The notes under the pieces were generated by a model that made no database searches, had not been told where the DNA came from, and saw nothing but the letters and a program-made list of their open reading frames with translations. 32,000 nucleotides of DNA from Geotalea daltonii FRC-32. Lineage in GTDB: Bacteria > Desulfobacterota > Desulfuromonadia > Geobacterales > Geobacteraceae. Every line of letters begins with the position of its first letter. Within the stretch, counting starts at the first letter, position 1. Location of the stretch: NCBI RefSeq assembly GCF_000022265.1, contig NC_011979.1, positions 1,860,001-1,892,000 of the forward strand. The letters are read 5' to 3'. Position numbers and translations under genes: made by a program. Shown one piece after another: positions 3,192 to 27,852 of this stretch.

Positions 3192-3200
3192 AAAGGGGGT

Positions 3201-3980: not shown

Positions 3981-4015
3981 ACAAAGATAAATATACTGGA
4001 AAGGAGGAATCATCA

Positions 4016-9097: not shown

Positions 9098-12000
9098 AGA
9101 GCGAAGGACATACTCGATCTCTTCCTCGGTATTGTCGTTCCCCAGGGAGAAGCGGACCGAGCAGTGAGCCTGCTGGGGGGTAAGCCCCATGGCGGTCAGG
9201 ACGTGGGATGGGTCCGGATTTCCCGATTTGCAGGCAGATCCGGAGGAAAAGGCGATTCCCTTCCTGTCCATGAGGAGGACCAGCGATTCCCCCCGTATTT
9301 CCGGCAGGGTCATACTGAGGGTGTTGGGGAGCCGCCCGTTTGGTGGCCCGTTGCTTTTTGCCATCGGCAGCAGCGCCCTTATTCCTCTTTCCAGCTTTTC
9401 ACGAAGGGCAGCCAGCCGCTTGGGTCCCTCACCATTCAACCGGCAGAGAGCCAGCTCTACTGCCCGGCCAAAGCCGACAATTCCGGGCACATTCTCAGTG
9501 CCGGCACGCAGCCCCCATTCCTGTCCTCCCCCCTTGACCAGCGGGGCTAACCTCAGATCCTTCCGCACATAAAGCGCCCCGACCCCCTTTGGTCCATGGA
9601 GCTTGTGGGCGGATACCGAAAGCAGATCAATCCCCAATTCAGCCACATCGATGGCTATCTTGCCGAAAGCCTGCACCGCGTCGGTGTGAAAAAGGGCACC
9701 ACAGCCATGGGCAATCTCGGCCAACTCCCTCACCGGCTGGATGGCGCCGGTCTCATTATTGGCGAGCATGATGGACACCAGCAGTGTATCCGGTCGGATG
9801 GCAACGGCCAGAGCTGACGGTTCGACAACTCCGGCCCGGTTTACCGGCAGGATCGTCAGCTCGTATCCGAGTGTCGCCAATGCCCGGCAGGGGACCAGCA
9901 CTGCGGGATGCTCGATGCTGCTGGTGATGATGTGCCGGCGTTCCCCACCTGAAGCCGCTGCCAGACCTTGAATGGCGAGGTTATCCGCTTCTGACCCTCC
10001 ACCGGTAAAGACGATGCGCCGGGCGGTGCAGTTGAGCCCCTGGGCAACGACTCTGCGGGCAGCTTCTATGGCTGTCCTGGCCGCATTGCCAAAACTGTGG
10101 ATGCTTGAGGGATTGCCGCATTGCTCCCCCAGGAAGGGAAGCATTACCTCACGTACCTCAGGGGCAACATGGGTGGTGGCATTGTGGTCCAGGTAGACCG
10201 CCTGCCGGGATTCCCTTTGAACAGTGAGAGGCTCGTATGCCGGTATTTCTTCAGCCTTGTCTTCTGTTTCAATACCTTGATTCCTTTTAATAGATCGGCT
10301 GCCATCGGCCAGTTTCATTACCCGGCAGAGCAGGGTTTTATATATGGGGAAGCCGGAGATGGGGTCGAATCGGCCGATGTCCGTAAGTTCGTTGACGTTG
10401 CATTGCTGCCATTCTGCCGGTCCCAGCGGACCGCCTCCCCCCATGGCGGCGTCAATGGTGCCGCGCATCATGTGGTCGGAAAGCCTTGCCGTAAACAGAG
10501 CGCGGCCACGGGGCGTTTCCACCCAGACCTGTTCACCTTCCCCTATGCCCGATTCCATTGCTTCCCCTCTGTTCATCATCACCGGCGGACTGTCATGATG
10601 TTCGGCAAGTGACCGGACCCCATGGTGCTGGCTGCGGAAATCGAATCTGGTCCTGCCACCGGAGTTGAAAACCAGGGGATATTCCCGTGCCAGCTCCGGG
10701 GCGGCCAGCGGCCCTTCTGCAGGCTCGGTATAGACCGGCAGAGGATCATACCCATGCTCGGCCAGGATTGAGGAGGCAATCTCGAACTTGCCGCTGGGGG
10801 TGTTGAAGCCGGGGCGGCCGTCGGCCCGAAGCAGCCCCTTTTCCCACTTCCGGTACTGCATCATGGCTGTCGGCAATCGCACTTCTCCCCCGGCTTTCCT
10901 TACCTCATCCAAAGAAAAGCCGCTGCCGTCCAGGGCATGGCGCAGGAGTTCCTCTTCCGATCTTGGATAAAGGTGCCCGTAGCCCAGGCGCCCGGCCAGT
11001 TCTGCCAGGATGAGGAAATCATTGCGCGCCTCCCCCTGCGGCTCCACAAGGCGTTCACGGATCTTGAACATCGGGCCGAAACGCATGTATGAAGTGATCT
11101 CGTAGTAGGTGGCAGCGGGCAGGACGATGTCCGCATAGGCGGAGTCGGCAGTGTGGTAGCGGTTAATGCTGACCATGAAATCCAGGGCATCCAGGGTCTT
11201 GCGCCATATTTGCGGTTGCGGCCAGGCGGTGATGATCGACCCGCCGAGGACGGTCAGGGCGCGGATCGGGTATGGTTTGTCATGCAGGACCGCATCGGGA
11301 AGGGCAATGGCGTGGGATTCACCACGATATGCGCTATAGACCGGGAAGCGGTCCCGCCCCAGAGCCTTCTTCATATCTGGATTGGGGATGAGGCGTGAGC
11401 GATTCTGGGGAAAGATATTTTCCTTCATGCGGAAGACCAGTCCTCCCGGCACGTCCAGTTGACCGGCCAGAGCCCACAACGTAAAGACGCCGCGGATGGC
11501 CTGGACGCCGCTGTCGGAATATTCCAGCCCGGTGTACATGACCGGCACGGAACCCCGAGCTGCCACCACTTCCCGTGCCAGCTCACGCACCGTTTCTGCC
11601 GGTACCCCGGTTATGCTTTCCACCACCTCCGGCCGGTAGTGCTGGACCAGCTGCTTCAATTCCTCGAATCCCACCGTCCAGTTGGCGGCGAATTTTTCGT
11701 CATAAAGCTCTTCCTCAACCAGTACGGCAATCATCCCCAGGGCCAGCGCTCCATCGGTACCGGACCGGATGGGGACCCACCTGGCGCCGGTCTCACGGGC
11801 GGTCTCACCCAGGCGCGGGTCAATGGCGATGATCCGTGCGCCACGCTCCCGCGCCTTCAGGATCTGCAGGTGATTCAGCGGCGGCGAGTCGGTGGCGGGA
11901 TTGGCCCCCCAGATGACGATCAGCTCTGCCTGCTCGATGTCCGCCTCCATTGTCACCAGCATCTCCCCCATGGTCACATGGGGAGCGATCATGGCAAAGG

Positions 12001-12460
12001 AGACGTAGCAGAGGGCGCCGACACCAAGGGTGTTGGGGGACCCGAAGGGGAAAAGGACGCTGGAGGCGGAGGACACAGCCACATCAGCCGGCTGGAAGAC
12101 ATCGCACAGTGCCATGTCGAAGCTGCCCCGGCCGGTATAAAAGGCTACCGCTTCCGGTCCCGAACTATTTTTTATTTCCTGAAAACGGGAGACGATAGTA
12201 TTGAAGGCTTCATCCCAGGAAATCCGTTCAAATTGATAGGTTCCCTTGGGGCCAGTGCGGCGCAGGGGATGAAGAAGCCGGTCCGGATCGTGGACGATTT
12301 GGGGAGAATGCCGGCCGATATGGCAGATCATCCCCAGGGGGTGCCCATTATGGGGCTCTACCTTTAGTAACCGGCCTTCCCTGATGGTGGCCGTTATGAA
12401 ACAGCCGGCAGGACAGATGCCGCACAGGCCATGGCGGATTTCGATCCTGTCCTCCGTCAC
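9041..12460 (-). CDS. Metallopterin-dependent ergothioneine synthase (MES)-like bifunctional protein: an acetylene-hydratase-related Mo/W-bis-pyranopterin domain fused to a NifS/IscS-type cysteine desulfurase
   Basis: Single uninterrupted 1139-aa ORF. The N-terminal part has the MopB Fe-S motif C13-x2-C16-x3-C20...C46, ISWDEAF, IDPR, GTDGAL and LYDEKFAANWTVGFEELK, and continues with typical MopB domains to about aa 715. The C-terminal part (aa 755-1139, nt 9044-10198) has YLDHNATT, SSIEHPAV, the PLP-lysine motif SVSAHKLHGPKG and the catalytic loop SSGSAC. The GTG start overlaps the upstream gene's stop codon (TAGTG). Confidence 0.75.
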   Translation of the reverse strand: MTEDRIEIRHGLCGICPAGCFITATIREGRLLKVEPHNGHPLGMICHIGRHSPQIVHDPDRLLHPLRRTGPKGTYQFERISWDEAFNTIVSRFQEIKNSSGPEAVAFYTGRGSFDMALCDVFQPADVAVSSASSVLFPFGSPNTLGVGALCYVSFAMIAPHVTMGEMLVTMEADIEQAELIVIWGANPATDSPPLNHLQILKARERGARIIAIDPRLGETARETGARWVPIRSGTDGALALGMIAVLVEEELYDEKFAANWTVGFEELKQLVQHYRPEVVESITGVPAETVRELAREVVAARGSVPVMYTGLEYSDSGVQAIRGVFTLWALAGQLDVPGGLVFRMKENIFPQNRSRLIPNPDMKKALGRDRFPVYSAYRGESHAIALPDAVLHDKPYPIRALTVLGGSIITAWPQPQIWRKTLDALDFMVSINRYHTADSAYADIVLPAATYYEITSYMRFGPMFKIRERLVEPQGEARNDFLILAELAGRLGYGHLYPRSEEELLRHALDGSGFSLDEVRKAGGEVRLPTAMMQYRKWEKGLLRADGRPGFNTPSGKFEIASSILAEHGYDPLPVYTEPAEGPLAAPELAREYPLVFNSGGRTRFDFRSQHHGVRSLAEHHDSPPVMMNRGEAMESGIGEGEQVWVETPRGRALFTARLSDHMMRGTIDAAMGGGGPLGPAEWQQCNVNELTDIGRFDPISGFPIYKTLLCRVMKLADGSRSIKRNQGIETEDKAEEIPAYEPLTVQRESRQAVYLDHNATTHVAPEVREVMLPFLGEQCGNPSSIHSFGNAARTAIEAARRVVAQGLNCTARRIVFTGGGSEADNLAIQGLAAASGGERRHIITSSIEHPAVLVPCRALATLGYELTILPVNRAGVVEPSALAVAIRPDTLLVSIMLANNETGAIQPVRELAEIAHGCGALFHTDAVQAFGKIAIDVAELGIDLLSVSAHKLHGPKGVGALYVRKDLRLAPLVKGGGQEWGLRAGTENVPGIVGFGRAVELALCRLNGEGPKRLAALREKLERGIRALLPMAKSNGPPNGRLPNTLSMTLPEIRGESLVLLMDRKGIAFSSGSACKSGNPDPSHVLTAMGLTPQQAHCSVRFSLGNDNTEEEIEYVLRSLAEVLGETISVIRFVPCR

Positions 12461-13527
12461 TATGAAGTACCTCCGGAGACTGCCGGGGAGAAGCCGTTCC
12501 GGCGTAACAGGAGAAGGGCGAACCAGCTACGTTCGTCAGTAAAGATCTCCTCGGCGGTAAAGCCATAGCCCTCCAGGAAAGGGAGGAATGTCTCAAGACG
12601 GAATTTCCGGCTGATCTCAGTATTTATGGCTTCACCTTCGTCAATGATAACATGCTGCCCTAGTGGCGCGATGTGGATCGCCTGGCGTTGGCTGAAGCGG
12701 GCACAGATATCCACCTGCTCCTTTGCCTCGTTGTAAACCGCCACATGCTGGACGGCAGACGGGTCTATGGAACTTCCCAGTTCCCGGTTCATGCGGATGA
12801 AAAGATTCCGGGTGAATTCCTGGGTTACGCCGGCAGCATCGTTGTAGGCGGCTTCAATGGTCTGACGCTCCTTGACCAGGTCGATGCCCAGCAGGAAGAA
12901 GTCGTCCCGGCAAAGGGACAGGGCAAGGTCATGGAGAAACAGGGACATCTCTTCGCCGGCGAAGTTGCCGATGCTGCTGCCAAGGAAGAGCACAGTCACC
13001 GGCGATATCTCGCGCAAGAGGGGGAAGGCACCCCTGTAGTCGCTGTTTATGCCGAGGACTTGTGTTGCCGGATGGCTGGCGGTTATGTTGCGGGAAGCTT
13101 CTCGCAGGGCGGCCTCGCTCACGTCGATCGGGATATATCTCACCGACTGTGCCTGGGCAAGCCAGGCCCGCAGCAGATAGTCGGTCTTTGTCGAATTGCC
13201 CGAACCGAGCTCCGCAAGTGTTGTGGCGCCGCATATTTTCCTGATGAAGCGTGCTTTGGTTGCGAGAATTTCAGCTTCAGTGCGGGTCAGATAATATTCG
13301 GGTTGACGGGTGATAAGGTCGAACAGCTCGCTGCCGCGGGCATCATAGAGAAAACGGCATTGGAGCCTGCGGGGCATGGAGCTGAGGCCGGCGGCGGTGG
13401 CGGAGGCAAAATCGATCAGCTGATCGGCCTCCGTCGAGTGCTGTCGAATGATCAGGCCGGAACGGTTCAGTGCTTTGCGAAAAGACTTGCGGACCGGCCA
13501 GGGGGCCGACGGAAAAGTTGCTTGCAT
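12460..13527 (-). CDS. egtD: EgtD-type SAM-dependent L-histidine N-alpha-methyltransferase (hercynine synthase)
   Basis: Motifs: FLYDARGSELFDLITRQPEYYLTRTEAEIL, ELGSGNSTKTDYLL, LGSSIGNF and TEISRKF, all hallmark EgtD-family blocks. I place the start at ATG 13527 because SD AAGGGAG lies 5-6 nt upstream. The longer track ORF (to 13743) would run into the divergent gene at 13628. Confidence 0.8.
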   Translation of the reverse strand: MQATFPSAPWPVRKSFRKALNRSGLIIRQHSTEADQLIDFASATAAGLSSMPRRLQCRFLYDARGSELFDLITRQPEYYLTRTEAEILATKARFIRKICGATTLAELGSGNSTKTDYLLRAWLAQAQSVRYIPIDVSEAALREASRNITASHPATQVLGINSDYRGAFPLLREISPVTVLFLGSSIGNFAGEEMSLFLHDLALSLCRDDFFLLGIDLVKERQTIEAAYNDAAGVTQEFTRNLFIRMNRELGSSIDPSAVQHVAVYNEAKEQVDICARFSQRQAIHIAPLGQHVIIDEGEAINTEISRKFRLETFLPFLEGYGFTAEEIFTDERSWFALLLLRRNGFSPAVSGGTS

Positions 13528-13627
13528 ATGACTCCCTTTGGACAGCAGGGGCAAAATGGGCAATAATATTAAAAAGTATAAATAAAGTCGGGGGAGAGTC
13601 AAATCAGGCTGAAACTCTGGAGGTAAC

Positions 13628-14134
13628 ATGAAGGGTAACGACCTGTTGCGAAAGGAATTACTGGCCCTGCTGTCCGGTGGGGAAGCCCATATGGATTTTG
13701 CCGATGTTGTCGCCCGGTTCCCCATGGAGCACATTAACAGCAAGGCACCGCATACACCCTATTCCTGCTGGCATTTCGTCGAACACCTGCGCATTGCCCA
13801 GTGGGACATCCTGCAGTTCATGATCGATCCCGATCATGTGTCGCCGGACTATCCCGAAGGTTACCGTCCGGCTCCTGACAAAAAAGCCGATGAAAAGGAT
13901 TGGTATGTGAGTGTGGAGGGGGTACTCTCAGACCTGGAGAACCTGAAGGGGATAGTCAGTAACCCGGAGACCGACTTTTTTGCCCCCATCCCCCATGCCA
14001 AAAGCTACACAATATTTCGGGAGATACTGCTGGTGGCGGACCACAACGCCTACCACATAGGCGAGCTGGCCCTGCTGCGTCAGGTACTGGGGATATGGCC
14101 GAAGGGGTTCGAATACCTTACCGGCAGGGCCTGA
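13628..14134 (+). CDS. DinB-superfamily (DinB_2-like four-helix bundle) protein
   Basis: SD GGAGG precedes the ATG. His-containing blocks HFVEHLRIAQWDIL and ADHNAYHIGELALLR are typical of DinB/YfiT-like metal-binding proteins. 168 aa. Confidence 0.6.
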   Translation: MKGNDLLRKELLALLSGGEAHMDFADVVARFPMEHINSKAPHTPYSCWHFVEHLRIAQWDILQFMIDPDHVSPDYPEGYRPAPDKKADEKDWYVSVEGVLSDLENLKGIVSNPETDFFAPIPHAKSYTIFREILLVADHNAYHIGELALLRQVLGIWPKGFEYLTGRA

Positions 14135-14337: not shown

Positions 14338-16266
14338 CTAGGGCGAAATGATGAATGGTGCCGACAGCGCCCATACATCGCCTGAGGTGGAAACCACCAT
14401 GATCCGGCAGCCGCTGCCGACTATGCCCAGGGTTTCCACTGGTGCCGAAAGGGTGAAGGTGCCGGTGGAAGCAGGAACCACCGTCGGCGTCAGCTTGACC
14501 CAGATGCTGCCGGGGAATGGATCGCCGGAAGAGAGGGGTGTGGCCAGTTTGCCCGGATCGTCAGCCAGCAGGAAGACCTCGACACCCGACGCAAAAAGAA
14601 GCGATCCGCCCCAGGTAACCGTGGGAGGCGCCGTGCCGAATTTCCAGATGGTGCCGCCTGCGGGGGCGGTGACCCCGGTGGGGTCCTGGAAGGTGGTCGT
14701 CATGAACGGTATGACCGAGGAAATCTGCATGGGGGATGGAGGACCGTAAAACAGCCAGGTGGTCTCGATCTCCCGCCGGTTGTCGAAATCCTCTGCGGCG
14801 ACGGTGAGGTTGCCGCCGATGGCAAGGACCGGCAAGGTGCTGCTGAAGGAGGCGCTGGTATCGCTTAGGAGCAGGTCCCTATCGAAGAAATACCCTGCTT
14901 TGCCGAGGGAGTCCCAACCGTAATAGTTGAGGTAGGTGTCGAACCAGCTCGCCTTGAAGGCGGTGGGCACGGCGACGCCGTAGGTCAGGGTGCCGCTGAT
15001 TCGTGCGTCGGCCAGATAATGGCCGTCGGTTGCCCCTGTGACCGGGGATATACCGGAAAGGGCTGGGAAATAGGCAGCTGTGACCTCGGAGCGCAGCCAT
15101 GGCCTTGCCGGCATGGTTACCGTCCTCGTTTCCACCACCACGTTGTTGCTGTCGTAAATACTGAAGGTATAGACGGAGTTCGGGGCTATGGAGCCCAGGG
15201 TGGCATCGTCAATGACATACATCTCCCACTGCTTGGTGGGCAGTTGAGGGGAGGCCCAGTAGGCGTTGCCGAGCCGCATCTGCTGCGGGTACATGGCGTC
15301 CTGGGCGAGAACTATGCCGCCGGTGGGGAGACCGGGTCCTTTAACGACAGCGGAAACGAGGCCGATGTTGTCCCGGTCTTCCACCCGGACCATGAACCCG
15401 GACTCTATCCGGACGCCTGTCGGCAGGCCCAGCCATTGGGCGGTAATTCCCCTCATCTCAACTGCCGACCGATAATTGTTGCCGGTGATCTTCCATTCCC
15501 CGTTTTCCTTGACCATGATGAAGCCGTCATCGGGGAAGCCGTAGGAGCCATCCTTGAAAAAGCCTTTACCGGTAACCTTGACCGGGCTGCCGACTGCGGC
15601 GGACAACGGTTTGGCTGAGGCGGTCAGGCTGACCATCCCTTTGGAGAGAATATCCCCGAATTTATAGTCCTTCACATCGAAATCAATGGCTGCCGCCCGT
15701 CCCAGACCGTCATGGATGCCGAAACTCGTTGCATAGAACCGATCCAGATCTGCAGCGGTCAGGGCGGTCCCCTTGGCCTCTATGGTATCCTTGAAGTACA
15801 GGTAAAGCTTGGCGGTTATGGCTTGATTGACGTCTTCCTGCATGGTGACCGGCACTGCCGTGTCGGTTCCGTTAAGATCGACGGTGGTGCTGCCGGTATA
15901 GGGGGTGTTATTGTAGTTATCCTGGGCAATCACCTTGAAGACACGGCCGCTGCCATTGGGAACGGCAAAGGAGTCGGATGCGGAAGTCTGCCCGGGGGCA
16001 ACGGTGATGACCCTGACGATGTCCGTCATGTCCGGTGCGGTGACGGTAATGGTTATCTTTTTGACGATGGAAGGAAGGATGCCTGTGCTGGTGGCTGCGG
16101 TGGTCATGCCGGCAAAGACCGTTTTTGATGTTACGCCCCCTTTTGCCGCAGCCTGGCCGAAACTTACCGTAACCTTGCTGGTTCCGGCAGTGCCACTCCC
16201 GGAACAGCCTGCACATGCCATCAATATGAAAAAGAGGAGGGTGGAAAAAATGAACCGGTTACCCAT
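14338..16266 (-). CDS. Large hypothetical lipoprotein (beta-rich; contains an NTF2/SnoaL-like segment)
   Basis: Lipoprotein signal MGNRFIFSTLLFFILMA|C, followed by GCSGSG. SD AGGGGG is present, and the gene starts 15 nt after the FecR-domain gene stop. It is Thr/Gly/Val-rich with Ig-like N-terminal repeats. The segment ..GFIMVKENGEWKITGNNY.. resembles NTF2-like folds. No enzyme motifs were recognised. Confidence 0.6.
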   Translation of the reverse strand: MGNRFIFSTLLFFILMACAGCSGSGTAGTSKVTVSFGQAAAKGGVTSKTVFAGMTTAATSTGILPSIVKKITITVTAPDMTDIVRVITVAPGQTSASDSFAVPNGSGRVFKVIAQDNYNNTPYTGSTTVDLNGTDTAVPVTMQEDVNQAITAKLYLYFKDTIEAKGTALTAADLDRFYATSFGIHDGLGRAAAIDFDVKDYKFGDILSKGMVSLTASAKPLSAAVGSPVKVTGKGFFKDGSYGFPDDGFIMVKENGEWKITGNNYRSAVEMRGITAQWLGLPTGVRIESGFMVRVEDRDNIGLVSAVVKGPGLPTGGIVLAQDAMYPQQMRLGNAYWASPQLPTKQWEMYVIDDATLGSIAPNSVYTFSIYDSNNVVVETRTVTMPARPWLRSEVTAAYFPALSGISPVTGATDGHYLADARISGTLTYGVAVPTAFKASWFDTYLNYYGWDSLGKAGYFFDRDLLLSDTSASFSSTLPVLAIGGNLTVAAEDFDNRREIETTWLFYGPPSPMQISSVIPFMTTTFQDPTGVTAPAGGTIWKFGTAPPTVTWGGSLLFASGVEVFLLADDPGKLATPLSSGDPFPGSIWVKLTPTVVPASTGTFTLSAPVETLGIVGSGCRIMVVSTSGDVWALSAPFIISP

Positions 16267-16281
16267 GGAAGCTACCCCCTG

Positions 16282-17274
16282 TTAGAAATTTACATTCACA
16301 TTGACATTTGTCGTGGTCGGAACAGCCGGTGGCGGAGGAGGGGGTGGTGTGGCTGTTGCCGGTGCAACCACCGGCGGCGGAGGTGGCGGTGCCTGTGTGG
16401 TCGTCTTCACTGAAGACGTGGGAGCTGTTGTGATTGCCGACGGTATGGTGCTGCCCATAAGAGCGGTTCCTGTGGATGTCGGTGCAATAGTGGTGGTCAA
16501 CGATGCTGACTGACTGAGAATGTCTGTGCCTTCTGTCTGGTTTCCGTTTGCTGCCGGGGTTGACTGGGCCGCCGGCTGACCGGTCCCCTGGGTGCCGGAT
16601 TGACCGCCGCTTTCTGTCTTGGGCGTCGTTACACCTTTTTCCATATGCTGTGTTTCTGCCGGCAGCGCCTGGCGCGGGGGCTGTGGCGGAGCGCCGGGGG
16701 CAATGGTGGTTATATTGCCAGCCGTGACGGTGACTATCCGGTCGGGCATGCGTCGATTATAGGTATAGACGCTTCCCTGGCGGACCAGGACGCCGGTCAT
16801 GCTTCGGTCGTGGCTGACGATGAAATCGGTTCCCCTGACGCCGGCAACGGCATTGGGGGTATGAACCTCGAAACGCCGCCCCTCTCCGGCCCGCTTGACC
16901 CTGACAGGATCGACGATGGCTTCCACCTTGCCCCTCGGCAATCGCACGTTGGCGCCGTTTTCCCGCTGTCCGGAAAAATATGTCCCGATGTCGATACGGC
17001 TTCTTTGAGCAACCTTGAGGATGGTGCCGTCCTTGAACTGGATCTCCGCAAAGCTGCCGCTCCTGGTGCGGACAAAATCACCCTCACCGAGCTTGTCCCC
17101 GGTTTTGACCGTAACTGCCGGCAGTTTGCCGTTACGCAGCACATCAACGGTTCCGCTTACGATTTTGAAAGAGGCAATGTCCTCTGCCGCCAGGACTGTG
17201 CTTGAACCCATCACAACCAAGGTGAAAAGCAGAGCCAGCTGCAGGAATAGTGATCTGCCCGGTATGTCGATCAT
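16282..17274 (-). CDS. FecR-domain protein with a Thr/Ser/Gln-rich and poly-proline C-terminal tail
   Basis: Signal or anchor peptide, then FecR-type blocks (GTVDVLRNG, TGDKLGEGDFVRTRSGSFAEIQFKDGTILKVAQRSRIDI, HTPNAVAGVRGTDFIV). The tail is ..QAPPPPPPVVAPATATPPPPPPPAVPTTTNVNVNVNF. SD GAGGTG overlaps the upstream gene's stop codon. Confidence 0.7.
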   Translation of the reverse strand: MIDIPGRSLFLQLALLFTLVVMGSSTVLAAEDIASFKIVSGTVDVLRNGKLPAVTVKTGDKLGEGDFVRTRSGSFAEIQFKDGTILKVAQRSRIDIGTYFSGQRENGANVRLPRGKVEAIVDPVRVKRAGEGRRFEVHTPNAVAGVRGTDFIVSHDRSMTGVLVRQGSVYTYNRRMPDRIVTVTAGNITTIAPGAPPQPPRQALPAETQHMEKGVTTPKTESGGQSGTQGTGQPAAQSTPAANGNQTEGTDILSQSASLTTTIAPTSTGTALMGSTIPSAITTAPTSSVKTTTQAPPPPPPVVAPATATPPPPPPPAVPTTTNVNVNVNF

Positions 17275-17283
17275 GTGTTCACC

Positions 17284-18762
17284 TCAAAAGCGGACTTCAA
17301 CCCCTGTTGAATAGACATTGCGGTCATACTCGTAGAGGGCCAGGTTGGAAAAATCCGAGGCGTGGAAATACTGGAAATTGACAAATATGCCGTCGGTTAG
17401 TTCATGGCTAAGGTTGACGGTAGCCGCATAGGTGGCGTCTTCCCGCTTCATGCCATAGACCGTGTGATTGTTGAGGTAATTCTGCCAAAACCCCTCAAGA
17501 GATATAATGACGCTGGTCCTTGAAGCGAGGGGCAGAAGCAGATCTGCATTAAGCCTGTTCCCCAGATAGGACCAATTGTTACCCTGTGCATCCTCCAGGG
17601 AAAATTCGTAGCGAAGGTTGAAAAAGCCTCTCTCTTCGGCAAACAGATAGATGTAGCCCATCTGCCCTGCATAGCCGTCGGCATCGCGATTTTCAGATGA
17701 GACGGTATTCTGCAGGTAATTGCGTCTGCTGTAACCGAACGACGCCTGCCCCAGGTGATCAGATGCGAAAAAGGCGGTGGCGGTTGGTTTGACCGTAACT
17801 TGATTGGAGTATGCCTCGTAGCTCAGAAGTGTGTAGTTGAAAGACACTGGCAGGGAGAACATCAACTGTGGCGTCAGGCGATAAGCGGGCGCCAGGGTGA
17901 CTCCCTGGGAGAGCTGACTGTATTCGTCACGCTTGAAGTAAGAGTTGTTGTACAGGGAATACTGGCCATTGAAAAGCCATGGTCCCCTGGCAGGCATCTC
18001 ATAAAGGATGCGCAGATTTTGATTGCTGCTCCAGTCATGGGGCGTGGGCAGAAAGAGACCAGGTACATCCTGGGACGGTTTTACCACCACGTTGTCGTCG
18101 TACTGCAGGTTTACTCCGGCGAAAATATGCCAGTTCCGGGGTGCAGCTGCCGTCAATCTTCTTTCATATTCTCGTGCAAAACCTGCCAGCTCGGATGAAG
18201 GGTCGCCGGAGATGACCGATTTGAGGCTTTCCTGTGCCTTGTCCCGGTCCCCCTGCTTCAGGTATATCTGGGCGATCTGGAAGTCCGCCTGCTGTGCCAA
18301 GGCGGGATCGATTTCCTTGGCCTTGATCAAGGCGGCCACTGCTCCTTCGCTGTTATCGTTCCCAGCCAATACCTGCCCTTTCAGGAAAGCTACTCTGGCC
18401 GGTTTTACCCCGGCACTCTCTGCCATGGCAATGAATTTGCCCGCCTCTGCGAAATCGTTCTGCAGATAAAGTAGCTCAATGAGCTCAGGATATGCGTCAG
18501 AAACCATCGGTTCAAGCTTCAGGCTCATTTTCAGGTTGGCCACGGCTTGTTCCAGGTTGCCGGTTTGCTTCAGGGCCAGCCCGAGATGGTAAGCGACTGC
18601 TGAAGATGTTGGCTGCTCCTTTTGAGCTGCAGCCAGAATTTCCTGGGCTTCCTCGAAACGTTCCGCCTGATACTCGTTGATTCCGAGTTCAAGCTGTTCC
18701 TGGCCTGCCAGCGCGGTTGACGGCAGCAGAAAGACCATCAGCAATAATAATATACGTGGCAT
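17284..18762 (-). CDS. TPR-repeat N-domain fused to an outer-membrane beta-barrel (Slam/DUF560-like architecture; family not verified)
   Basis: SD AGGAG. Signal peptide MPRILLLLMVFLLPSTALA|GQ. About 180 aa of TPR-like helices (AYHLGLALKQTGNLEQAVANLKMSLKLEP ...). Then ~290 aa of alternating Tyr/Asn/Gly-rich strands ending ..STGVEVRF. Confidence 0.6.
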   Translation of the reverse strand: MPRILLLLMVFLLPSTALAGQEQLELGINEYQAERFEEAQEILAAAQKEQPTSSAVAYHLGLALKQTGNLEQAVANLKMSLKLEPMVSDAYPELIELLYLQNDFAEAGKFIAMAESAGVKPARVAFLKGQVLAGNDNSEGAVAALIKAKEIDPALAQQADFQIAQIYLKQGDRDKAQESLKSVISGDPSSELAGFAREYERRLTAAAPRNWHIFAGVNLQYDDNVVVKPSQDVPGLFLPTPHDWSSNQNLRILYEMPARGPWLFNGQYSLYNNSYFKRDEYSQLSQGVTLAPAYRLTPQLMFSLPVSFNYTLLSYEAYSNQVTVKPTATAFFASDHLGQASFGYSRRNYLQNTVSSENRDADGYAGQMGYIYLFAEERGFFNLRYEFSLEDAQGNNWSYLGNRLNADLLLPLASRTSVIISLEGFWQNYLNNHTVYGMKREDATYAATVNLSHELTDGIFVNFQYFHASDFSNLALYEYDRNVYSTGVEVRF

Positions 18763-18868: not shown

Positions 18869-19204
18869 TTAAACATCGTTATTTTTGCCCCACCTTTCAT
18901 TCATTCTCTTATGGTGGATGGCATTTTCGGCGCTGACCTCGTCCAGTATCCGCTCGGCCTCTTCTGCAGTCAGGCCGACACTGGGCCGGACGCCCATCCA
19001 ATGGGTGAGGTCGCCGCTGGGATTATCAAGGGGCTGTGGGATGGGGGGGCCCGGTTTGAACCGGTCATTGAGAAAAAGGGCGGCCTCATATTGGCCATTT
19101 CTCATCACCAGCCGCACTTCTGCAAAGAAATCGTTTTGCAGCCGTTTCATGATGATGATGTCTTTCACGGTCATGTCCGGGGGCACGTCTATCAAATCAG
19201 CCAT
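18869..19204 (-). CDS. Hypothetical protein (111 aa)
   Basis: ORF with GGAG 8 nt upstream of ATG 19204. The longer 156-aa version in the track has no SD. No family was recognised. Confidence 0.4.
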   Translation of the reverse strand: MADLIDVPPDMTVKDIIIMKRLQNDFFAEVRLVMRNGQYEAALFLNDRFKPGPPIPQPLDNPSGDLTHWMGVRPSVGLTAEEAERILDEVSAENAIHHKRMNERWGKNNDV

Positions 19205-19408
19205 GGTTTTTCTCCGATATTTTGGTAGAGCTTCGATAATGGTATTTATCGGCATGTGGTAAAGTGGCTTTAGTTTTTTTGTCGGGTGCCTGTGCAATGG
19301 CAAAGGGGGGGCAGGTTTTTCTTGAAATAGACAAATCACTACTTTATTATGGCTGGCCAGTGCTGATAGCGGTCAATTCCGGATCAGACGACGCAGCCAG
19401 GGGGGGCA

Positions 19409-20461
19409 ATGGCTTTTAAAATAGCGAAAGTACGAAGAAAGCTGTTCATTCCCCTTGTAATGTCGATGGCGGTTTTTCTCTGCGGCCTCATCTACACTGT
19501 CTATCGTTTACAGTGGGATCACATCCAGTCTGATACAGTGTTGAGGCTAGATGCTTTCCACAAGAACTACCAGAGCCAGATCCAGAACGAAACCGATCTC
19601 CTCAATGCGTTTCTCGTGCTGCTCAAGGAAGATGAAAAGCTGCAGAAAGCCTGGCTGTCCGGGGACCGTCAGGCCCTGCTGCGCGATGCATTGCCAATAT
19701 TCGAGGGGTTGCGCAATCGGAGCCGGATTACCCACTTCTACTTCATTACCACCGACAAAATATGTTTTCTCCGCGTGCATAAGCCGGAAAGCTTCGGCGA
19801 CCTTATCGATCTGACCACCGTCGACATTGCCGCCCATTTGGGTAAGCCCGCCAATGGCGTGGAAATGGGACCCTATGGCACTGTGGCGTTGCGATCGGTC
19901 CACCCGTGGTACATCGACGGCAAGTTGACGGGATACATCGAACTGGGTGAAGACGTGGAGCAGCTGACCGCACGTATCTCCAAGTTGATGAACATGGAAC
20001 TTTTGTCGGTTGTGGACAAGAAATTTCTCGACAAGGGGAAATGGGAACAGGGATTGAGGATGTCGGGGCGTTATGGGAACTGGGATCAGTACAGGAACTA
20101 CGTCGTTGTTTCCACCAACAATGATAGGCAGTATCCAGGATTGGACCGCATCCTGGAAGTTTCGGACAAGGACAGGAACTTTCTCCTAAGATCGGGCGGG
20201 CGGTCGTTGAGTGGCGGTTTTGACGCATCCATAGACGCTGCAGGAAATATTATCGGCAAATTTGTGCTTTTTTCCGATGTAACCTGGGAAGAGAGAAGCA
20301 TTTACGGACTGCTGTTGAGGCTGGGGGCGCTTACGCTGGTGATCTCCGGCCTGGCCCTGGCCTTCTTCGACTGGTACATCAGCCGCATTCATTTTCAGCA
20401 GGCAGTGTCACCGGTGGAGGAGCAGAATGTTCCGGAGGCTAAGAAGCCGGCGGAACTATGA
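19409..20461 (+). CDS. Membrane-anchored extracytoplasmic Cache-like sensor-domain protein lacking any output domain
   Basis: TM helix 1 is LFIPLVMSMAVFLCGLIYTVY. The ~270-aa periplasmic region carries blocks seen in Cache-type sensor domains of Geobacter kinases (ITHFYFITTDKICFLRVHKPESFGD, GVEMGPYGTVALRSVHPWYIDGKLTGYIELGEDV). TM helix 2 is LLLRLGALTLVISGLALAFF. Only ~30 cytoplasmic residues follow. Confidence 0.55.
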   Translation: MAFKIAKVRRKLFIPLVMSMAVFLCGLIYTVYRLQWDHIQSDTVLRLDAFHKNYQSQIQNETDLLNAFLVLLKEDEKLQKAWLSGDRQALLRDALPIFEGLRNRSRITHFYFITTDKICFLRVHKPESFGDLIDLTTVDIAAHLGKPANGVEMGPYGTVALRSVHPWYIDGKLTGYIELGEDVEQLTARISKLMNMELLSVVDKKFLDKGKWEQGLRMSGRYGNWDQYRNYVVVSTNNDRQYPGLDRILEVSDKDRNFLLRSGGRSLSGGFDASIDAAGNIIGKFVLFSDVTWEERSIYGLLLRLGALTLVISGLALAFFDWYISRIHFQQAVSPVEEQNVPEAKKPAEL

Positions 20462-20471
20462 CCGGGGCGGC

Positions 20472-21242
20472 TTATTTCCCCTCCTGAAGGCGGCCCAACA
20501 GCCTGAGCAGGCCGTCAAGTATGGTGAACGGGTGGGGAGGGCAGCCAGGGATATAAAGATCCACAGGTAGCAGCCCATCCACACCATTGTGCACCTCCGG
20601 CGAGTCCATGAAAGGCCCTCCGTTGATGGCACAGGCACCGCTGGCGATGACGATTTTCGGTGCCGGCACTGCCTCATAGGTCTTCAGCAGCGCTTCCCGC
20701 ATATTTTCAGTAACCGGACCGGTCACCAGGATGCCGTCGGCATGGCGCGGCGATGCCACGAACTGGATGCCGAATCGTCCCAGGTCCCAAGCCACCGTTG
20801 ACAGAACGTTCACATCTGCCTCACAGGCATTGCACCCCCCTGCACATACCTCACGCAGTTTCAGAGACCGGCCGAAGAGGGAAAGCATTTTTGCTTCCAG
20901 CGCTTCGGTTAATTTCCGCTCTCCATCCGAAGATACGATCAAATCCCGGCGAGTTCTTGCCGCCAGCTTCTCATCGCGGCTGAACCTGATGGCTCCATGG
21001 GGGCACGACAGGGTGCACTCCGGACAGAACAGGCATTTGCCCATATCCAGTGCCAGACAGTTTTCATTGCGGCTGATGGCGCCGAATGGACAGGCATTGG
21101 CACACAGACGGCAGTCGGCAGGGCAGGCCTCGGCGTTGAGGACAGGGTAACCGCGGAAAAGCTCAGGCAATTGTGCCGGTTCATCGGGATATTTCAGGGT
21201 GCGGTGTTTCTGGTGGATGCGGGCGAGTATGGTTTTAAGCAT
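20472..21242 (-). CDS. Fused 2x[4Fe-4S] ferredoxin (HycF/NuoI-like) and NuoB/HycG-like small subunit of an Ehr/group-4-hydrogenase-type complex
   Basis: The N-terminal part has CPADCRLCANACP and CLFCPECTLSCP. The C-terminal part has GGCNAC, SPRHADGILVTG, ASGACAINGG and IPGCPP, the four NuoB-type cluster cysteines. Confidence 0.8.
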   Translation of the reverse strand: MLKTILARIHQKHRTLKYPDEPAQLPELFRGYPVLNAEACPADCRLCANACPFGAISRNENCLALDMGKCLFCPECTLSCPHGAIRFSRDEKLAARTRRDLIVSSDGERKLTEALEAKMLSLFGRSLKLREVCAGGCNACEADVNVLSTVAWDLGRFGIQFVASPRHADGILVTGPVTENMREALLKTYEAVPAPKIVIASGACAINGGPFMDSPEVHNGVDGLLPVDLYIPGCPPHPFTILDGLLRLLGRLQEGK

Positions 21243-21284
21243 AATATCCTCAGCTAAAAATATCGTCGGCAGATCGTTCGTACG

Positions 21285-22808
21285 TTAAAGGTCGAATCCG
21301 CAGTAGGACAGGTTGAAGCTCTTATTGCACAGGGGAAAATCCGATATCTGCTGGCCGCGCAGGGCCATGGCCAGTCCCGGCCAGTTATGGAAAGATGGAT
21401 CGACAATCTTGTAACGACTGAACCTGCCCGATTCGTCGGTCAGCGCCACATGACAGACCTCTCCTCGCCAGCCTTCGGTCAAGGCCACGGCAAGCCTTTC
21501 TCCGGCCGGCGCCCCCATATGGGTAGCATGGCGACCGCTGGGCAACTGACGCAGCTGTTCCTCCAGGAACTCCAGTGATTTTTCCGCTTCCAGCCATCTG
21601 ACCAGAGTCCGCCCGTAAACGTCTCCGCTTCTGGCGGTAACCACGGGAATCTGGCTCATCTGATAGATGCCGAAAGGGAAATCCTGGCGTGTATCGGTGG
21701 CAATGCCACAGGCTCTTGCTGCTGGGCCGGTGAGGGCGAGCTCTTTGGCCGTTTCCCTGCTGACGGTACCAGTGGCTTCAAGGCGGGCAAGCACCGAAGG
21801 GGTCGCCCAGATAAGATCGACGGCATTGGTCAGATCTTTTCGCGCTGATGCCAGTCGCTGCAGGAGTTCGTCCGACTGTTTCCGGCTGCAGTCGAAGCCG
21901 GTACCGCCGGGGCGGATCAGCCCCCGGCTGAAGCGACTGCCGCAAAGGATGGCGCTCATATTGAGGAAATCGCCCCTGATACGGCCACAGTAGGACGAGG
22001 TGGGAAGGTAGCCGGTGTCGCCGGCGATGGCCCCCAGGTCCCCGGTATGATTTGCCAGTCGTTCCAGTTCCAGGCCGATACCCCGTAGTACCTCTGCCTT
22101 GGCCGGCAGATGAATATTGGCCAGAGACTCCAGGATCATGCAGTGGGCCCATGCGTGGCCGACGGTGGTGTCTCCGGCTATGGTTTCCATCTCATAGAGG
22201 GTTCGTGGTTTCGGTCCGCCGATCAATGCCGCTTCGATGCCCCGGTGCTGGTATCCCAGGGCTATTTCCAGGTGGAAAACCTCTTCGCCGTGGCATTGGA
22301 AACGGAAATGTCCCGGCTCTATCACTCCGGCATGGACCGGCCCGACTGCAACTTCGTGGACTTCCTCTCCCTCGACCCGGTAGAAATCGGTGACACCGGG
22401 GAGGATGGCGCTCCTGTCGGCTCGTCCCCAGGCATCGTAACCGGGCCTGAAGGATTGGTGGAAACGGAGCGGTTTGAACCAGGGGTGTCCTTCCGGTACT
22501 ATCCCGAATTGCTCGGCGATTTCACGCTCGAAAAGATTGGCCTGTGGACAGTAAGGGGTAATGGAGGGAAAATTGCCGCTGCATTTGCTGCGCATCACTC
22601 CGATCAAGCCGTCGGCTCTGGCTGTTAGCACAACATAGAGATTAAGCTCGGCAGGGTTTCCTTCACCGAAAAAAGCGGAGATTTTCCAGCCGTGGTCTGC
22701 GGCGTTTATAATGGCCTGGAGAAATTCTTCCAGTCTCACCTCGGGGACTGCGGCAAGTGGTAAGGACTCGCCGTTGTAAAACGTCTTCATAAAGGAGGTG
22801 TCTGTCAT
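21285..22808 (-). CDS. NuoC-NuoD / HycE-like 'large subunit' lacking the [NiFe]-binding cysteines (Ehr-type)
   Basis: ATG 22808 overlaps the upstream stop codon (ATGA), with GGAGG 7 nt upstream. Conserved blocks are VGPVHAGVIEPGHFRF and LGYQHRGIE. The CxxCxxxH site reads AGDTTVGH, and the C-terminal [DE][PL]CxxCx[DE][RL] site reads NLSYCGFDL. Confidence 0.8.
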   Translation of the reverse strand: MTDTSFMKTFYNGESLPLAAVPEVRLEEFLQAIINAADHGWKISAFFGEGNPAELNLYVVLTARADGLIGVMRSKCSGNFPSITPYCPQANLFEREIAEQFGIVPEGHPWFKPLRFHQSFRPGYDAWGRADRSAILPGVTDFYRVEGEEVHEVAVGPVHAGVIEPGHFRFQCHGEEVFHLEIALGYQHRGIEAALIGGPKPRTLYEMETIAGDTTVGHAWAHCMILESLANIHLPAKAEVLRGIGLELERLANHTGDLGAIAGDTGYLPTSSYCGRIRGDFLNMSAILCGSRFSRGLIRPGGTGFDCSRKQSDELLQRLASARKDLTNAVDLIWATPSVLARLEATGTVSRETAKELALTGPAARACGIATDTRQDFPFGIYQMSQIPVVTARSGDVYGRTLVRWLEAEKSLEFLEEQLRQLPSGRHATHMGAPAGERLAVALTEGWRGEVCHVALTDESGRFSRYKIVDPSFHNWPGLAMALRGQQISDFPLCNKSFNLSYCGFDL

Positions 22809-24238
22809 GGCCGTACCTCCAAAAGCTGGGCCGATTGCTGCAGGAGTGCTTTCAGCGGGGCCGGCAGCCATAGCCCCAGTACCAGAATGATGGCCATCAG
22901 GAACAGGGGCGGCCCGACCGTAAGGAAGCTGTCACGATAGGAGGTCCTGGTGACGGCCGGTGTCATTCTGCCCATTACCACCGGCAGCACGGAGGAGGCC
23001 ATACCGAGGAAGATGATGGCCAGGAAGAGCAGGAACAGGGCTCCGACCAGGGGTTGTTTTTGGCTGAAGATGCTGCTGACGATGGTGAATTCACTGAGAA
23101 ACGGGCTGAAGGGGGGGGAGCCGGTGATGGCGATGAATCCTGCCAAAAAGAGCGCCCCCGACCATGGGACCCGGTGCAACGCTCCTTTCACCTGTTCACA
23201 ATTCTTGCTGCCATAGGCCCGGTGAATATTCCCCGAGGTGAGGAACAGGACCCCTTTGGTCAGGCCGTTGTTGATGACGTGGAACAGCGCCCCGAAGAGG
23301 GCATCGCCACCTATCCCCAAGGCTATGGCCAAAATTCCCACGTGCTCCACGCTGGAATAGGCGAGCATTCTCTTGAAATCGGCCTGCCGCACGACAAACA
23401 CGGCGGCGAAGGCCATTGAAACAAGACCCAGGACAATCATGGCATTGTGATAGAAGGCGGTTTCGCTGGCCCGCATGCAAACCTGGTAAACCCTGATGAT
23501 GGCCAGGAAGGCGCAGTTAACCAGTCCCCCTGCCAGCAACGCTCCCACCAGGCCTGGAGCCTCTCCGTAAGCGTCCGGCTTCCAGGTGTGAAGCGGCGCC
23601 AGACCCATCTTCGTGCCGAAGCCTACCAGAAGGAAGATGAAGGCAGCATTTAGCCAGGCCGGTGAAAGCTGACCCGCTGAAGCGATCAGTGGTTCCAGCA
23701 GGAGCGTGGCTTCCTTTTGGGCGACAACGGTAGAGTAGGCAAGAAAGAAGAGGCCGAGCAGGGCCAGGGCGATGCCCACCGAACAGATGAGCATGTATTT
23801 CCAGGTGGCTTCAAGGGACCGGGCATTGCGGTTGAAGTAGATGAGAGGCGCCATGGTGAGGGTGGTGGCTTCCAGGGCAACCCAGAGTAGCCCCAGATGA
23901 TGGGAAATGGTTACCAGGGTCATGGCGGACAGGCAGACGAGAAGCCCCATGCACAGGACGCGGTTTGATCGTTCCTGGCGGTGGGAGAGGTAGCCCACCG
24001 CATAGACGGCGCAGGTAAGGAAAAGAAGGGTCTCGACGCCGAGAAACAGTTTGCCGATCGGGTCCAGCACGAGCCATCCCCCCGGAGACGGGGCGGGGGG
24101 GGCAATGAATGCATCGACGGTCAGGCTCAGATGCAGAGCGGCAAAAAGGGGAAGCACCAGCGGCCGGTGGCGGTTGGAAGGTATGAACCAGGCCAGTAGT
24201 GCGCCGACCAGTGGTAGCAGAACCAGGCTGTAAAACAT
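22805..24238 (-). CDS. NuoM/N / HyfF-like antiporter-type membrane subunit
   Basis: 477-aa polytopic protein with LEATWKY, GFGTKMGLAPLHTWKPDAYGEAP and LAYSSVEH blocks. SD AAGGAG. Confidence 0.8.
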   Translation of the reverse strand: MFYSLVLLPLVGALLAWFIPSNRHRPLVLPLFAALHLSLTVDAFIAPPAPSPGGWLVLDPIGKLFLGVETLLFLTCAVYAVGYLSHRQERSNRVLCMGLLVCLSAMTLVTISHHLGLLWVALEATTLTMAPLIYFNRNARSLEATWKYMLICSVGIALALLGLFFLAYSTVVAQKEATLLLEPLIASAGQLSPAWLNAAFIFLLVGFGTKMGLAPLHTWKPDAYGEAPGLVGALLAGGLVNCAFLAIIRVYQVCMRASETAFYHNAMIVLGLVSMAFAAVFVVRQADFKRMLAYSSVEHVGILAIALGIGGDALFGALFHVINNGLTKGVLFLTSGNIHRAYGSKNCEQVKGALHRVPWSGALFLAGFIAITGSPPFSPFLSEFTIVSSIFSQKQPLVGALFLLFLAIIFLGMASSVLPVVMGRMTPAVTRTSYRDSFLTVGPPLFLMAIILVLGLWLPAPLKALLQQSAQLLEVRP

Positions 24239-24242
24239 CTAC

Positions 24243-24881: not shown

Positions 24882-24883
24882 GG

Positions 24884-25792: not shown

Positions 25793-25826
25793 GATGAAAC
25801 CTCTGTCCGGCTAGGCTGGCACTCGT

Positions 25827-27830: not shown

Positions 27831-27852
27831 GGTTTATACTCCTGTGGAATAT

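Follow-up and report, generated by a model that had tools for sequence, protein, structure and literature searches.

To our knowledge, hardly any Slam/type 11 secretion systems (T11SS), among which are Slam1 and Slam2 of Neisseria and NilB of Xenorhabdus, have been described outside host-associated Proteobacteria or with cargo other than that bearing a particular C-terminal barrel. Their outer-membrane proteins consist of an N-terminal periplasmic tetratricopeptide repeat (TPR) domain and a C-terminal 14-stranded barrel, and the known T11SS cargo is defined by an 8-stranded barrel at its own C-terminus (PMC12282271). In the T11SS literature examined, FecR appears only as a classical iron regulator gene lying nearby, with neither FecR-domain cargo nor cyclases being described, and a 2025 survey of T11SS cargo mentions none of FecR, CHASE2 and cyclases. 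Further points of comparison are offered by the adhesins of the LapA/MpIBP type, which are held in a LapE/TolC pore, by the FecA-FecR-FecI signaling unit, and by the gene clusters that are built around CHASE2 nucleotide cyclases.

The window considered here is a stretch of 32,000 nucleotides from Geotalea daltonii FRC-32 (contig NC_011979.1, positions 1,860,001 to 1,892,000; coordinates below are those of the window), and it contains a minus-strand operon in which a TPR-barrel protein is encoded together with a FecR-domain protein and a large lipoprotein. In every relative examined, the barrel is accompanied by a FecR-domain protein, its invariant partner. The operon is tentatively read, with a probability placed a little short of even, as the outer-envelope part of a conserved two-component core, formed by a Slam-type barrel and a FecR/plug-like protein, to which a variable third component is added, with the barrel holding or threading the FecR protein. 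The three open reading frames (ORFs) encode products of 492, 330, and 642 residues:

17284..18762, minus strand: gene 1, outer-membrane TPR and barrel protein, 492 residues (ORF, signal peptide, homology)
16282..17274, minus strand: gene 2, Sec-exported FecR-domain protein, 330 residues (PF04773 match, synteny)
14338..16266, minus strand: gene 3, lipoprotein, 642 residues (ORF, lipobox with invariant C21, model)

The three genes are separated by 9 and 15 nt, with a purine-rich motif resembling a Shine-Dalgarno (SD) sequence 5' of each start (AGGAG, GAGGTG, and AGGGGG, respectively). The ORF calls and these upstream motifs bear out an earlier, sequence-only reading of the window, which had described three close-packed minus-strand genes, each with its own SD. 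All three products have many homologues, which argues that the trio represents genes rather than chance ORFs. A scan for promoters and terminators showed nothing on the operon strand beyond chance expectation. A sequence search of the PDB with all three proteins returned only TPR proteins for the barrel, nothing for the lipoprotein, and one weak, irrelevant match for the FecR-domain protein.

The pairing of barrel and FecR protein was followed in 62 loci, taken from one-genome-per-species contigs by a scan with a 10-sequence alignment and supplemented by a few metagenome loci, in which ORFs were called and iterated hidden Markov model (HMM) searches were run. A FecR ORF starts within 300 nt downstream of the barrel stop codon, on the same strand, in 58 of the 62 loci with downstream DNA (median gap 12 nt), and in the other four a FecR ORF lies within 1.3-3.3 kb of the barrel, so that the pairing is found in 62/62. 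The paired loci represent at least four phyla and come from Geotalea, Geobacter, and other Thermodesulfobacteriota, as well as from Nitrospirota, Omnitrophota, Planctomycetia, and one gammaproteobacterium of the Competibacteraceae; even among three relatives with only 21-23% identity, the FecR gene adjoins the barrel gene in two. Since the FecR protein is invariant while the full-length lipoprotein is confined to Geobacteraceae, the conserved unit consists of the barrel and the FecR-domain protein. This is the opposite of what had been proposed from the window alone, where the FecR protein was treated as an oddity and the lipoprotein as the cargo to be expected. Conservation of the gene trio, taken as a whole, is split: the barrel and the FecR protein stay together across phyla, and the full-length lipoprotein does not accompany them outside Geobacteraceae. 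The order of barrel, short FecR protein, and lipoprotein recurs in Geobacteraceae and Nitrospirota, and in other loci large Ig/FN3-rich secreted proteins occupy the third-gene position.

Several individual loci show arrangements of their own. In the distant locus L003 (5010-9533), the barrel is preceded by a protein that has two FecR domains and that is encoded beside a pair formed by an extracytoplasmic function (ECF) sigma factor and a zf-HC2 anti-sigma factor, which lie upstream. In L001 (8001-15291), a GerE regulator and a PilZ protein stand between the barrel and a 1373-residue FecR protein, with sugar-nucleotide enzymes upstream. In L008 (8001-12431; Geotalea toluenoxydans JCM 15764), the barrel and lipoprotein genes are each split into overlapping ORFs and the C-terminus of the FecR protein is altered; these features look like draft-assembly frameshifts and are more likely sequencing errors than signs of pseudogenes.

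The product of gene 1 has a signal peptide ending in ..STALA|GQ, followed by TPR matches (Pfam TPR_8, TPR_2, TPR_16, and TPR_19) that span residues 24-196, and by a C-terminal beta region with the final residues VEVRF. An AlphaFold2 model built from a 26-sequence alignment, with a mean predicted local distance difference test (pLDDT) score of 90.4, predicts 11 helices (residues 2-205) and 14 strands (residues 211-491), from which two domains are delimited:

18148..18693, minus strand: TPR domain of gene 1, residues 24-205 approximately, predicted periplasmic (Pfam TPR; model helices 36-205; TPR_Slam subthreshold)
17287..18147, minus strand: 14-stranded barrel domain of gene 1, residues 206-492, ending VEVRF (DSSP strands 211-491; barrel-only profile)

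The 492-residue query recovered 53 relatives, on many of which PF04575 (SlipAM/DUF560) is a precomputed annotation. Among the 26 members of the family alignment, PF04575 is matched by 15 (best E 1.5e-11), BBP2_2 by 22, and, below threshold, PF24575 TPR_Slam by 22. All ten homologues that were scanned (36-42% identical) exceed the PF04575 gathering score of 22 bits, with values of 23.5-44.8 (P0014 44.8, P0019 37.4, P0017 35.5, P0012 35.1, and P0009 33.9, for example); the profile is covered fully (1-288 of 288) in six of them and mostly in the other four, and the matches of the ten to BBP2_2, DUF2860, and OMP_b-brl involve the C-terminal part only. These PF04575-passing homologues are in turn related to the window protein at E values of about 1e-97 to 1e-110. 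A profile made from the barrel alone finds 301 representatives (clusters at 50% identity) at E<=1e-30 and 1561 at E<=1e-10. In a set of 5.8 billion proteins its top 120 matches all fall within the family, without reaching annotated Slams, and nearly all of those that are named at their source are labelled "tetratricopeptide repeat protein"; against the PDB the same profile gives zero matches even at E=10.

On this basis, we conclude that gene 1 encodes a divergent member of the DUF560/Slam superfamily, an assignment made by predicted architecture and transitive homology and not by a direct Pfam call. The Slam-like character that the sequence-only reading had given the protein is thus upheld by the 14-strand model, the TPR domain, and the homologues that pass PF04575. 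The likeness to Slam/T11SS extends to the gene order, in that an adjacent gene encodes a Sec-exported partner, and one of the partners here is a lipoprotein. The differences are, however, considerable. The window protein itself stays below Pfam detection; the invariant partner of its family has an N-terminal FecR domain and no 8-stranded C-terminal barrel; the family occurs in Thermodesulfobacteriota, Nitrospirota, Omnitrophota, and Planctomycetia rather than in host-associated Proteobacteria; and it is often tied to a CHASE2 cyclase rather than to TonB-dependent metal uptake.

A second interpretation that the sequence-only reading had offered for the barrel, namely a PgaA/BcsC-like TPR-porin exporting a polymer, has to be considered at this point, and is extended here to exopolysaccharide porins of the PelB and EpsL types. 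PF04575 catches PgaA-type porins as well, which have 16 strands, as compared with 14 in T11SS proteins (10.1101/2020.01.20.912956), and it is for this reason that the number of strands is informative; the 14 predicted for gene 1 speak against a porin of this type. A search of the barrel model against the PDB with Foldseek returned BcsC and PelBC among the top matches, together with generic 14- to 16-stranded barrels (OmpG, CymA, and FadL) and TPR proteins; these matches being generic and without a Slam entry, the comparison does not discriminate. The protein also has weak matches to NCBIfam EpsL (33.3 bits) and to BBP2_2 (E=0.009, 15.4 bits, over the C-terminal 58 residues only), but the cut-offs are 275 and 23.7 bits, respectively, and BcsC is still further away, with 10.8 bits against a cut-off of 858. 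The genomic surroundings of L001, with its sugar-nucleotide enzymes, PilZ protein, and a PMT_2 protein nearby, would suit polysaccharide export, whereas no synthase or glycosyltransferase is present in the window or among the conserved neighbors, which are FecR and CHASE2 proteins. A polysaccharide porin was rejected on account of strand number, scores, and neighbors, and we regard it as highly improbable. Taken together, membership in DUF560 is seen through the homologues only, BcsC is far below its cut-off, and the barrel is predicted to have 14 strands.

The product of gene 2 has a cleavable signal peptide (residues 1-29), directly behind which a FecR domain is found (PF04773, E=4e-18, residues 67-169; the domain as delimited here begins at residue 33), with no other Pfam match above threshold. 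It can be divided as follows:

16681..17187, minus strand: FecR-like domain of gene 2, residues 30-198, the first 77 or so of which resemble the plug of LapA/MpIBP (RIN/retention module)
16318..16680, minus strand: conserved motif PPRQALPAETQHMEKGVTTP, then low-complexity linker rich in Gln, Thr, Ser, and Pro, residues 199-319 (from sequence)
16621-16680, minus strand: the post-FecR motif PPRQALPAETQHMEKGVTTP itself, conserved in related FecR ORFs
16285..16317, minus strand: C-terminal amphipathic strand TTTNVNVNVNF, residues 320-330 (from sequence)

A profile of 28 FecR-domain sequences matches, over 77 residues and at E=1.3e-5, the PDB entry 5IX9 (chain 5ix9_A). This structure is RIN, the N-terminal periplasmic domain of the 1.5-MDa Marinomonas adhesin MpIBP, which has been described as too big for the outer-membrane pore and hence as a plug by which the adhesin stays tethered (PMC5550230), and RIN has served as the template for the retention module of LapA (10.1101/198937). 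Independently of this, the NCBIfam model retention_LapA (NF033682) is matched by 18 of the 28 members (best E 8.5e-8). The likeness of the FecR domain to the retention module is taken as a lead, suggested by profile similarity, and not as membership. The best matches of the domain are the NCBIfam models for the Leptospira proteins LipL45, Lsa33, and Lsa19, named in NCBIfam as a lipoprotein, a surface adhesin, and an adhesin, respectively; the Lsa33 and LipL45 models are matched by 28/28 members, but with scores far under the curated cut-offs (64 vs 420 bits).

Throughout the family, the FecR domain is succeeded by the motif P-R/K-x-A-T-x-x-E-h-x-x-x-E-x-x-T-S-P and then by a stretch of low complexity. 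The motif could serve for binding or processing, as the LapG site does in LapA. The low-complexity Pro/Thr-rich tail of gene 2, of about 120 residues and with two poly-Pro runs within residues 199-319, had not been remarked on in the sequence-only reading. It leads to the end strand TTTNVNVNVNF, whose alternating pattern resembles the beta-signal of outer-membrane proteins.

The comparison with LapA/MpIBP goes beyond the N-terminal beta-rich domain, since on both sides this domain is followed by a flexible linker and often by long Ig-like repeats, and on both sides there is a coupling to a cyclic-nucleotide second messenger. The two differ in that the proteins of the window family are exported by Sec, with a signal peptide, and that the pore would be a Slam-like 14-stranded barrel; neither an ABC transporter, a membrane fusion protein, a TolC-like pore, nor LapG/LapD was found in the window or among the 25 most widespread neighbor clusters. 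The messenger would be cyclic AMP or cyclic GMP (cAMP/cGMP) made by a CHASE2 cyclase, rather than cyclic di-GMP acting via LapD/LapG, and for the FecR protein of the window the similarity to the retention module is subthreshold.

With FecA-FecR-FecI, on the other hand, the locus has in common a FecR-family periplasmic domain encoded beside an outer-membrane barrel, as well as the general idea of signaling across the envelope. It differs in that gene 2 has neither a cytoplasmic anti-sigma domain nor a transmembrane helix, the output, where present, being a cyclase, and in that the window lacks both an ECF sigma factor and a TonB-dependent transducer with a signaling domain. Among the ORFs of at least 150 residues that were scanned in the window, none encodes an ECF sigma factor, a TonB-dependent receptor, or a glycosyltransferase. 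A classical FecIRA unit was rejected on the grounds of domain architecture and neighbors, as the sequence-only reading had held.

Across the loci, the FecR partners range from 247 to 2610 residues, and the part beyond the FecR domain from 50 to 2400. All those with an intact start have a hydrophobic N-terminus resembling a signal peptide, after which the FecR domain follows at once. Three architectures can be distinguished:

Class a, 250-290 residues approximately: Pro-rich tail, often PPITETxP; the next gene is usually a CHASE2 cyclase gene
Class b, 300-360 residues approximately: alternating hydrophobic end strand with an aromatic or hydrophobic final residue (NVNVNVNF in the window); the next gene encodes a lipobox lipoprotein of 550-645 residues, except in L060
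Class c, 430-2600 residues: conserved beta-rich domain of about 210 residues; the next gene often encodes a large modular Ig/FN3-rich secreted protein

The strand-type ending of class b is found in L005, L007, L010, L011, L014, L049, L054, L057, L058, and L060, with a lipoprotein gene next in all but the last. The C-terminal domain of class c, of about 210 residues, is separated from the FecR domain by Ig-like or PKD-like regions; it is not in Pfam and is internally duplicated in some proteins. Its consensus reads ..IWAT..V.G.Y...LSG.G..A.F....W....W.A.V..G.G...F.G.AAGT...G.FSGTAAGTVK, and examples are encoded in L020 (9534-11801), L024 (9489-13943), and L059 (9500-16168); L021 and L050 encode minimal proteins made of FecR and this domain only. 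The domain was also sought in the lipoproteins, where it was not found.

Gene 3 encodes a lipoprotein, as had been said, but the cysteine had been misplaced: the lipobox Cys that is invariant across the homologues is C21 (..CAG|C-SGSG) and not C18 (LMA|C). The protein has zero above-threshold matches in Pfam and NCBIfam and none in the PDB by sequence, and only 17 homologues were found among 5.8 billion proteins, those named at their source being from Geotalea. Full-length homologues are encoded in L005, L007, L008, L010, L011, and L014, all from Geobacteraceae. An AlphaFold2 model from 15 sequences (pLDDT 76.9) shows a string of beta-sandwiches and one alpha/beta domain, and begins with the following unit:

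15835..16182, minus strand: N-terminal Ig-like domain of gene 3, residues 29-144 (model strands 29-144; weak Big_11 match; BLASTP)

In the model, residues 146-296 form a helical segment and then a curved sheet, which may be read as NTF2-like, and further beta domains come after it. Foldseek with the whole model gave only generic Ig/FN3/macroglobulin-like sandwich strings with template-modelling (TM) scores of at most 0.17, from which no function can be inferred. BLASTP matches over residues 47-150 relate gene 3 to the lipoproteins of L049, L054, L057, L058, and L006 at E values of 1e-9 to 1e-13, and the N-terminal Ig-like domain is the only part of gene 3 that is common to the class b lipoproteins of Geobacteraceae and Nitrospirota. 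Going by these sequence relations, gene 3 is a lineage-specific third component, found at full length in Geobacteraceae.

These data also bear on the possibility that the operon is a classical Slam/T11SS, in which the barrel flips the 642-residue lipoprotein to the surface and the FecR protein has an accessory, regulatory or chaperone-like role instead of being a substrate. This would agree with the Slam-like architecture of the barrel, with the position of the lipoprotein gene next in the same operon, and with the recurrence of the order barrel, short FecR protein, lipoprotein in Geobacteraceae and Nitrospirota with the N-terminal domain of the lipoprotein conserved; moreover, T11SS proteins outside cluster 1 co-occur with genes for non-canonical candidate cargo, DUF1194 (PMC12282271). 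Most loci, however, have no lipoprotein, while FecR is always present, and in many of them the FecR protein is itself giant and cargo-like. The lipoprotein has no TbpBBD, lipoprotein C, or other Pfam match and no distinctive fold match, and the earlier expectation that it is a Slam cargo is not supported, given that Pfam finds no Slam-cargo domain, that Foldseek is generic, and that the full-length protein occurs only in Geobacteraceae. We consider the classical arrangement quite unlikely. Since lipoproteins sharing the Ig-like domain follow short FecR proteins in Nitrospirota as well, gene 3, which bears no mark of canonical Slam cargo in its sequence, is plausible as a client or an outer component in this subtype of the proposed system, with a barrel that holds or threads its FecR partner.

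The link to CHASE2 cyclases emerged from a clustering of the neighboring ORFs of the related loci (flanks of up to 8 kb; 36 loci with full flanks). The third most widespread neighbor cluster is a protein of about 650 residues with, according to Pfam, a CHASE2 domain (E=2.8e-60) and a class III nucleotide cyclase domain (E=2.7e-23). Of 63 loci, 34 have a gene combining CHASE2 and Guanylate_cyc at a distance of no more than 8 kb, as do 23 of the 36 with full flanks; 10 loci encode a class II cAMP phosphodiesterase/MBL protein, and other recurrent neighbors of the barrel are GAF proteins, sigma-54 regulators, and a cyclic-nucleotide-monophosphate (cNMP)-binding protein. In the Geobacter loci with the trio (L005, L010, L011, and L014), the cyclase gene is present directly after the lipoprotein gene, on the opposite strand. 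The sequence-only reading was silent on these cyclases, which are not visible from the window alone, and the link is frequent among relatives.

Related clusters have been described elsewhere. [quoted passage not shown] The CHASE2 cyclases CyaD1/D2/K of Sinorhizobium meliloti require the outer-membrane barrel NsrA, and a FecR-domain protein is, along with a TPR protein, part of their regulon (PMC13001267, PMC5498481). The input sensed by CHASE2 domains was described as unknown in 2016 (PMC5192318). The set of TPR protein, FecR protein, CHASE2 cyclase, and phosphodiesterase of the published clusters (PMC9239204) is found in most relatives of the window locus, whereas the window has the TPR and FecR proteins but, in its 32 kb, neither cyclase nor phosphodiesterase. 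In the note on the Campylobacterota cluster (PMC9239204), in turn, the TPR protein was not identified as a DUF560-type barrel, nor the FecR protein as similar to a retention module.

The main rival of the reading given above is prompted by these clusters. It is a periplasmic relay without translocation, in which the barrel would be a surface receptor or channel (cf. FecA and NsrA), the TPR domain would bind a soluble FecR protein, and this would pass the signal to the CHASE2 sensor, with nothing being exported; the Pro-rich tail would span the periplasm as a TonB-like spacer, and the lipoprotein would be an accessory attached to the outer membrane's inner leaflet. Minimal loci that consist of the barrel, a FecR protein of about 270 residues, and a CHASE2 cyclase (L009, L012, L016, L017, and L023) fit such a relay. 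The LysM domains of the Burkholderia FecR-CHASE2 pairs imply a periplasmic location (PMC5192318); by the account given in PMC5498481, E. coli FecR makes contact through its FecR domain with FecA's periplasmic part; and NsrA with its CHASE2 cyclases (PMC13001267) provides, by analogy, a precedent for an outer-membrane barrel that feeds a CHASE2 cyclase. A relay of this kind does not easily account for partners of 1000-2600 residues, which, with their conserved C-terminal domain and their regions of Ig-like, PKD, and FN3 type, are difficult to accommodate in the periplasm, nor for the fact that the characterised members of the barrel's family are protein translocons, nor for the resemblance of the N-terminal FecR domain to the plug of surface-tethered adhesins. 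On balance, we hold the relay to be unlikely.

In the reading preferred here, in which the barrel holds or threads its partner, we infer a topology, a threading route, a contact with CHASE2 and, for the lipoprotein, an exposure at the surface. The barrel would treat the FecR-domain protein as Slam treats its cargo. The folded N-terminal FecR domain would remain in the periplasm, docked at the barrel or at the TPR domain, as a plug or transducer, with the low-complexity linker running through or along the barrel and the C-terminal part being displayed outside or at the barrel seam. In other lineages the displayed part would be the domain of about 210 residues or more than 2000 residues of Ig-like repeats; in the window it would amount to the beta-signal-like strand only, and the variable outer part would be encoded apart, as the 642-residue lipoprotein; contact with the barrel, or with the FecR protein's terminal strand, would be made by its N-terminal Ig-like domain. 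The FecR domain would then, in most relatives, signal to the periplasmic CHASE2 domain of the adjacent inner-membrane class III cyclase, leading to outside-in cAMP/cGMP signaling. With no cyclase adjacent in the Geotalea daltonii window, the output partner may be encoded elsewhere.

It has to be noted that several observations weigh against this reading. The 492-residue protein of the window has no PF04575 among its matches listed to E=1, so that its membership in DUF560/Slam rests on transitive homology, and the PDB matches of the barrel model include no solved Slam. Neither gene 2 nor the lipoprotein has, by Pfam and Foldseek, the C-terminal 8-stranded barrel of known T11SS cargo. The FecR protein of the window scores 19.6 bits against NF033682, for which the curated cut-off is 50, and the profile similarity to the retention module covers about 77 residues only. 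No CHASE2 gene is present in the 32 kb of the window, nor in L007 and L008, the two other loci from Geotalea. Finally, the LysM-bearing FecR partners of the CHASE2 kinases in Burkholderia are presumably wholly periplasmic (PMC5192318), which makes a purely periplasmic role equally compatible with the synteny.

A more far-reaching form of the same idea would be a Sec-dependent "plug-and-thread" surface system, present in at least four phyla, in which a Slam-type barrel holds a periplasmic FecR/retention domain while the rest of the protein is outside, and in which a CHASE2 cyclase is gated by the periplasmic domain. We see this as possible but doubtful. In such a system, the end strand of the FecR protein may recruit a separate lipoprotein in the variant found here, while elsewhere a giant adhesin-like region may be displayed.

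The genes flanking the trio look unrelated to it. Upstream there are a small Geotalea-only ORF and a divergent gene for a dCache_3 protein, and downstream a DinB-like gene; the dCache_3 and DinB-like genes flank the trio likewise in both other Geotalea loci (L007 and L008). The small ORF (18869-19339, minus strand), 5' of the barrel gene, has 156 codons from a GTG, or about 111 from the ATG at 19204, the latter agreeing in length with its L007 homologue; no family is matched, and its homologues occur only in L007 and L008. The dCache_3 gene (19409-20461, plus strand) encodes a 350-residue membrane protein with a sensor domain and no output domain and diverges from the operon, an arrangement kept in L007 and L008, where the CHASE2 cyclase is missing as well; the protein might conceivably take the cyclase's place as the partner in the inner membrane. 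Further upstream of the trio, a membrane cluster resembling hydrogenase-4/Ech or complex I (20472-28542, minus strand) includes Oxidored_q6, Complex1_49kDa, and two Proton_antipo_M subunits, and appears unrelated to the trio.

On the other side of the operon, an EgtD-like histidine-specific methyltransferase (Methyltransf_33; 12460-13743, minus strand) is encoded directly upstream of a 1139-residue fusion protein (9041-12460, minus strand; the two ranges share position 12460), in which a molybdopterin oxidoreductase (Molybdopterin and Molydop_binding) is joined to a class V aminotransferase/cysteine-desulfurase domain, and the pair may represent an unusual pathway to a thio- or seleno-histidine betaine. 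Two multihaem cytochromes with MtrC/MtrF-like domains are encoded at 3201-3980 and 4016-6268 on the plus strand; 5' of them lie a gene for a DUF3108 protein (533-1672) and one for a 408-residue protein without a family match (1965-3191). The genes of the stretch 1965-6268 (plus strand) may form a cluster for a porin-cytochrome conduit.

The cluster of TPR, FecR, and CHASE2 genes had come to notice once before, without analysis. In the literature searched, we met with no account that presents the TPR protein as a DUF560-type 14-stranded barrel, or that describes the universal pairing of barrel and FecR protein across phyla, the three partner architectures, the C-terminal domain of about 210 residues, or the similarity to the retention module. 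The branch of the superfamily represented in the window, with about 300 representatives at 50% identity (E<=1e-30), is at home in anaerobes that belong to several phyla and live in the environment, and it is always partnered by a FecR-domain protein. Both Geobacter and Geotalea are amenable to genetic work. The barrel and its FecR-domain partner offer a concrete, testable input path for CHASE2 domains, and the sequence link between FecR and the LapA plug suggests a common way of tethering proteins through outer-membrane pores. If the more far-reaching form of the idea were true, it would provide a mechanism for FecR-CHASE2 pairs and a function for a large uncharacterised branch of the T11SS superfamily, it would extend a Lap-like principle of retention beyond type 1 secretion, and it would mean that what happens at the cell surface is turned directly into cAMP/cGMP.

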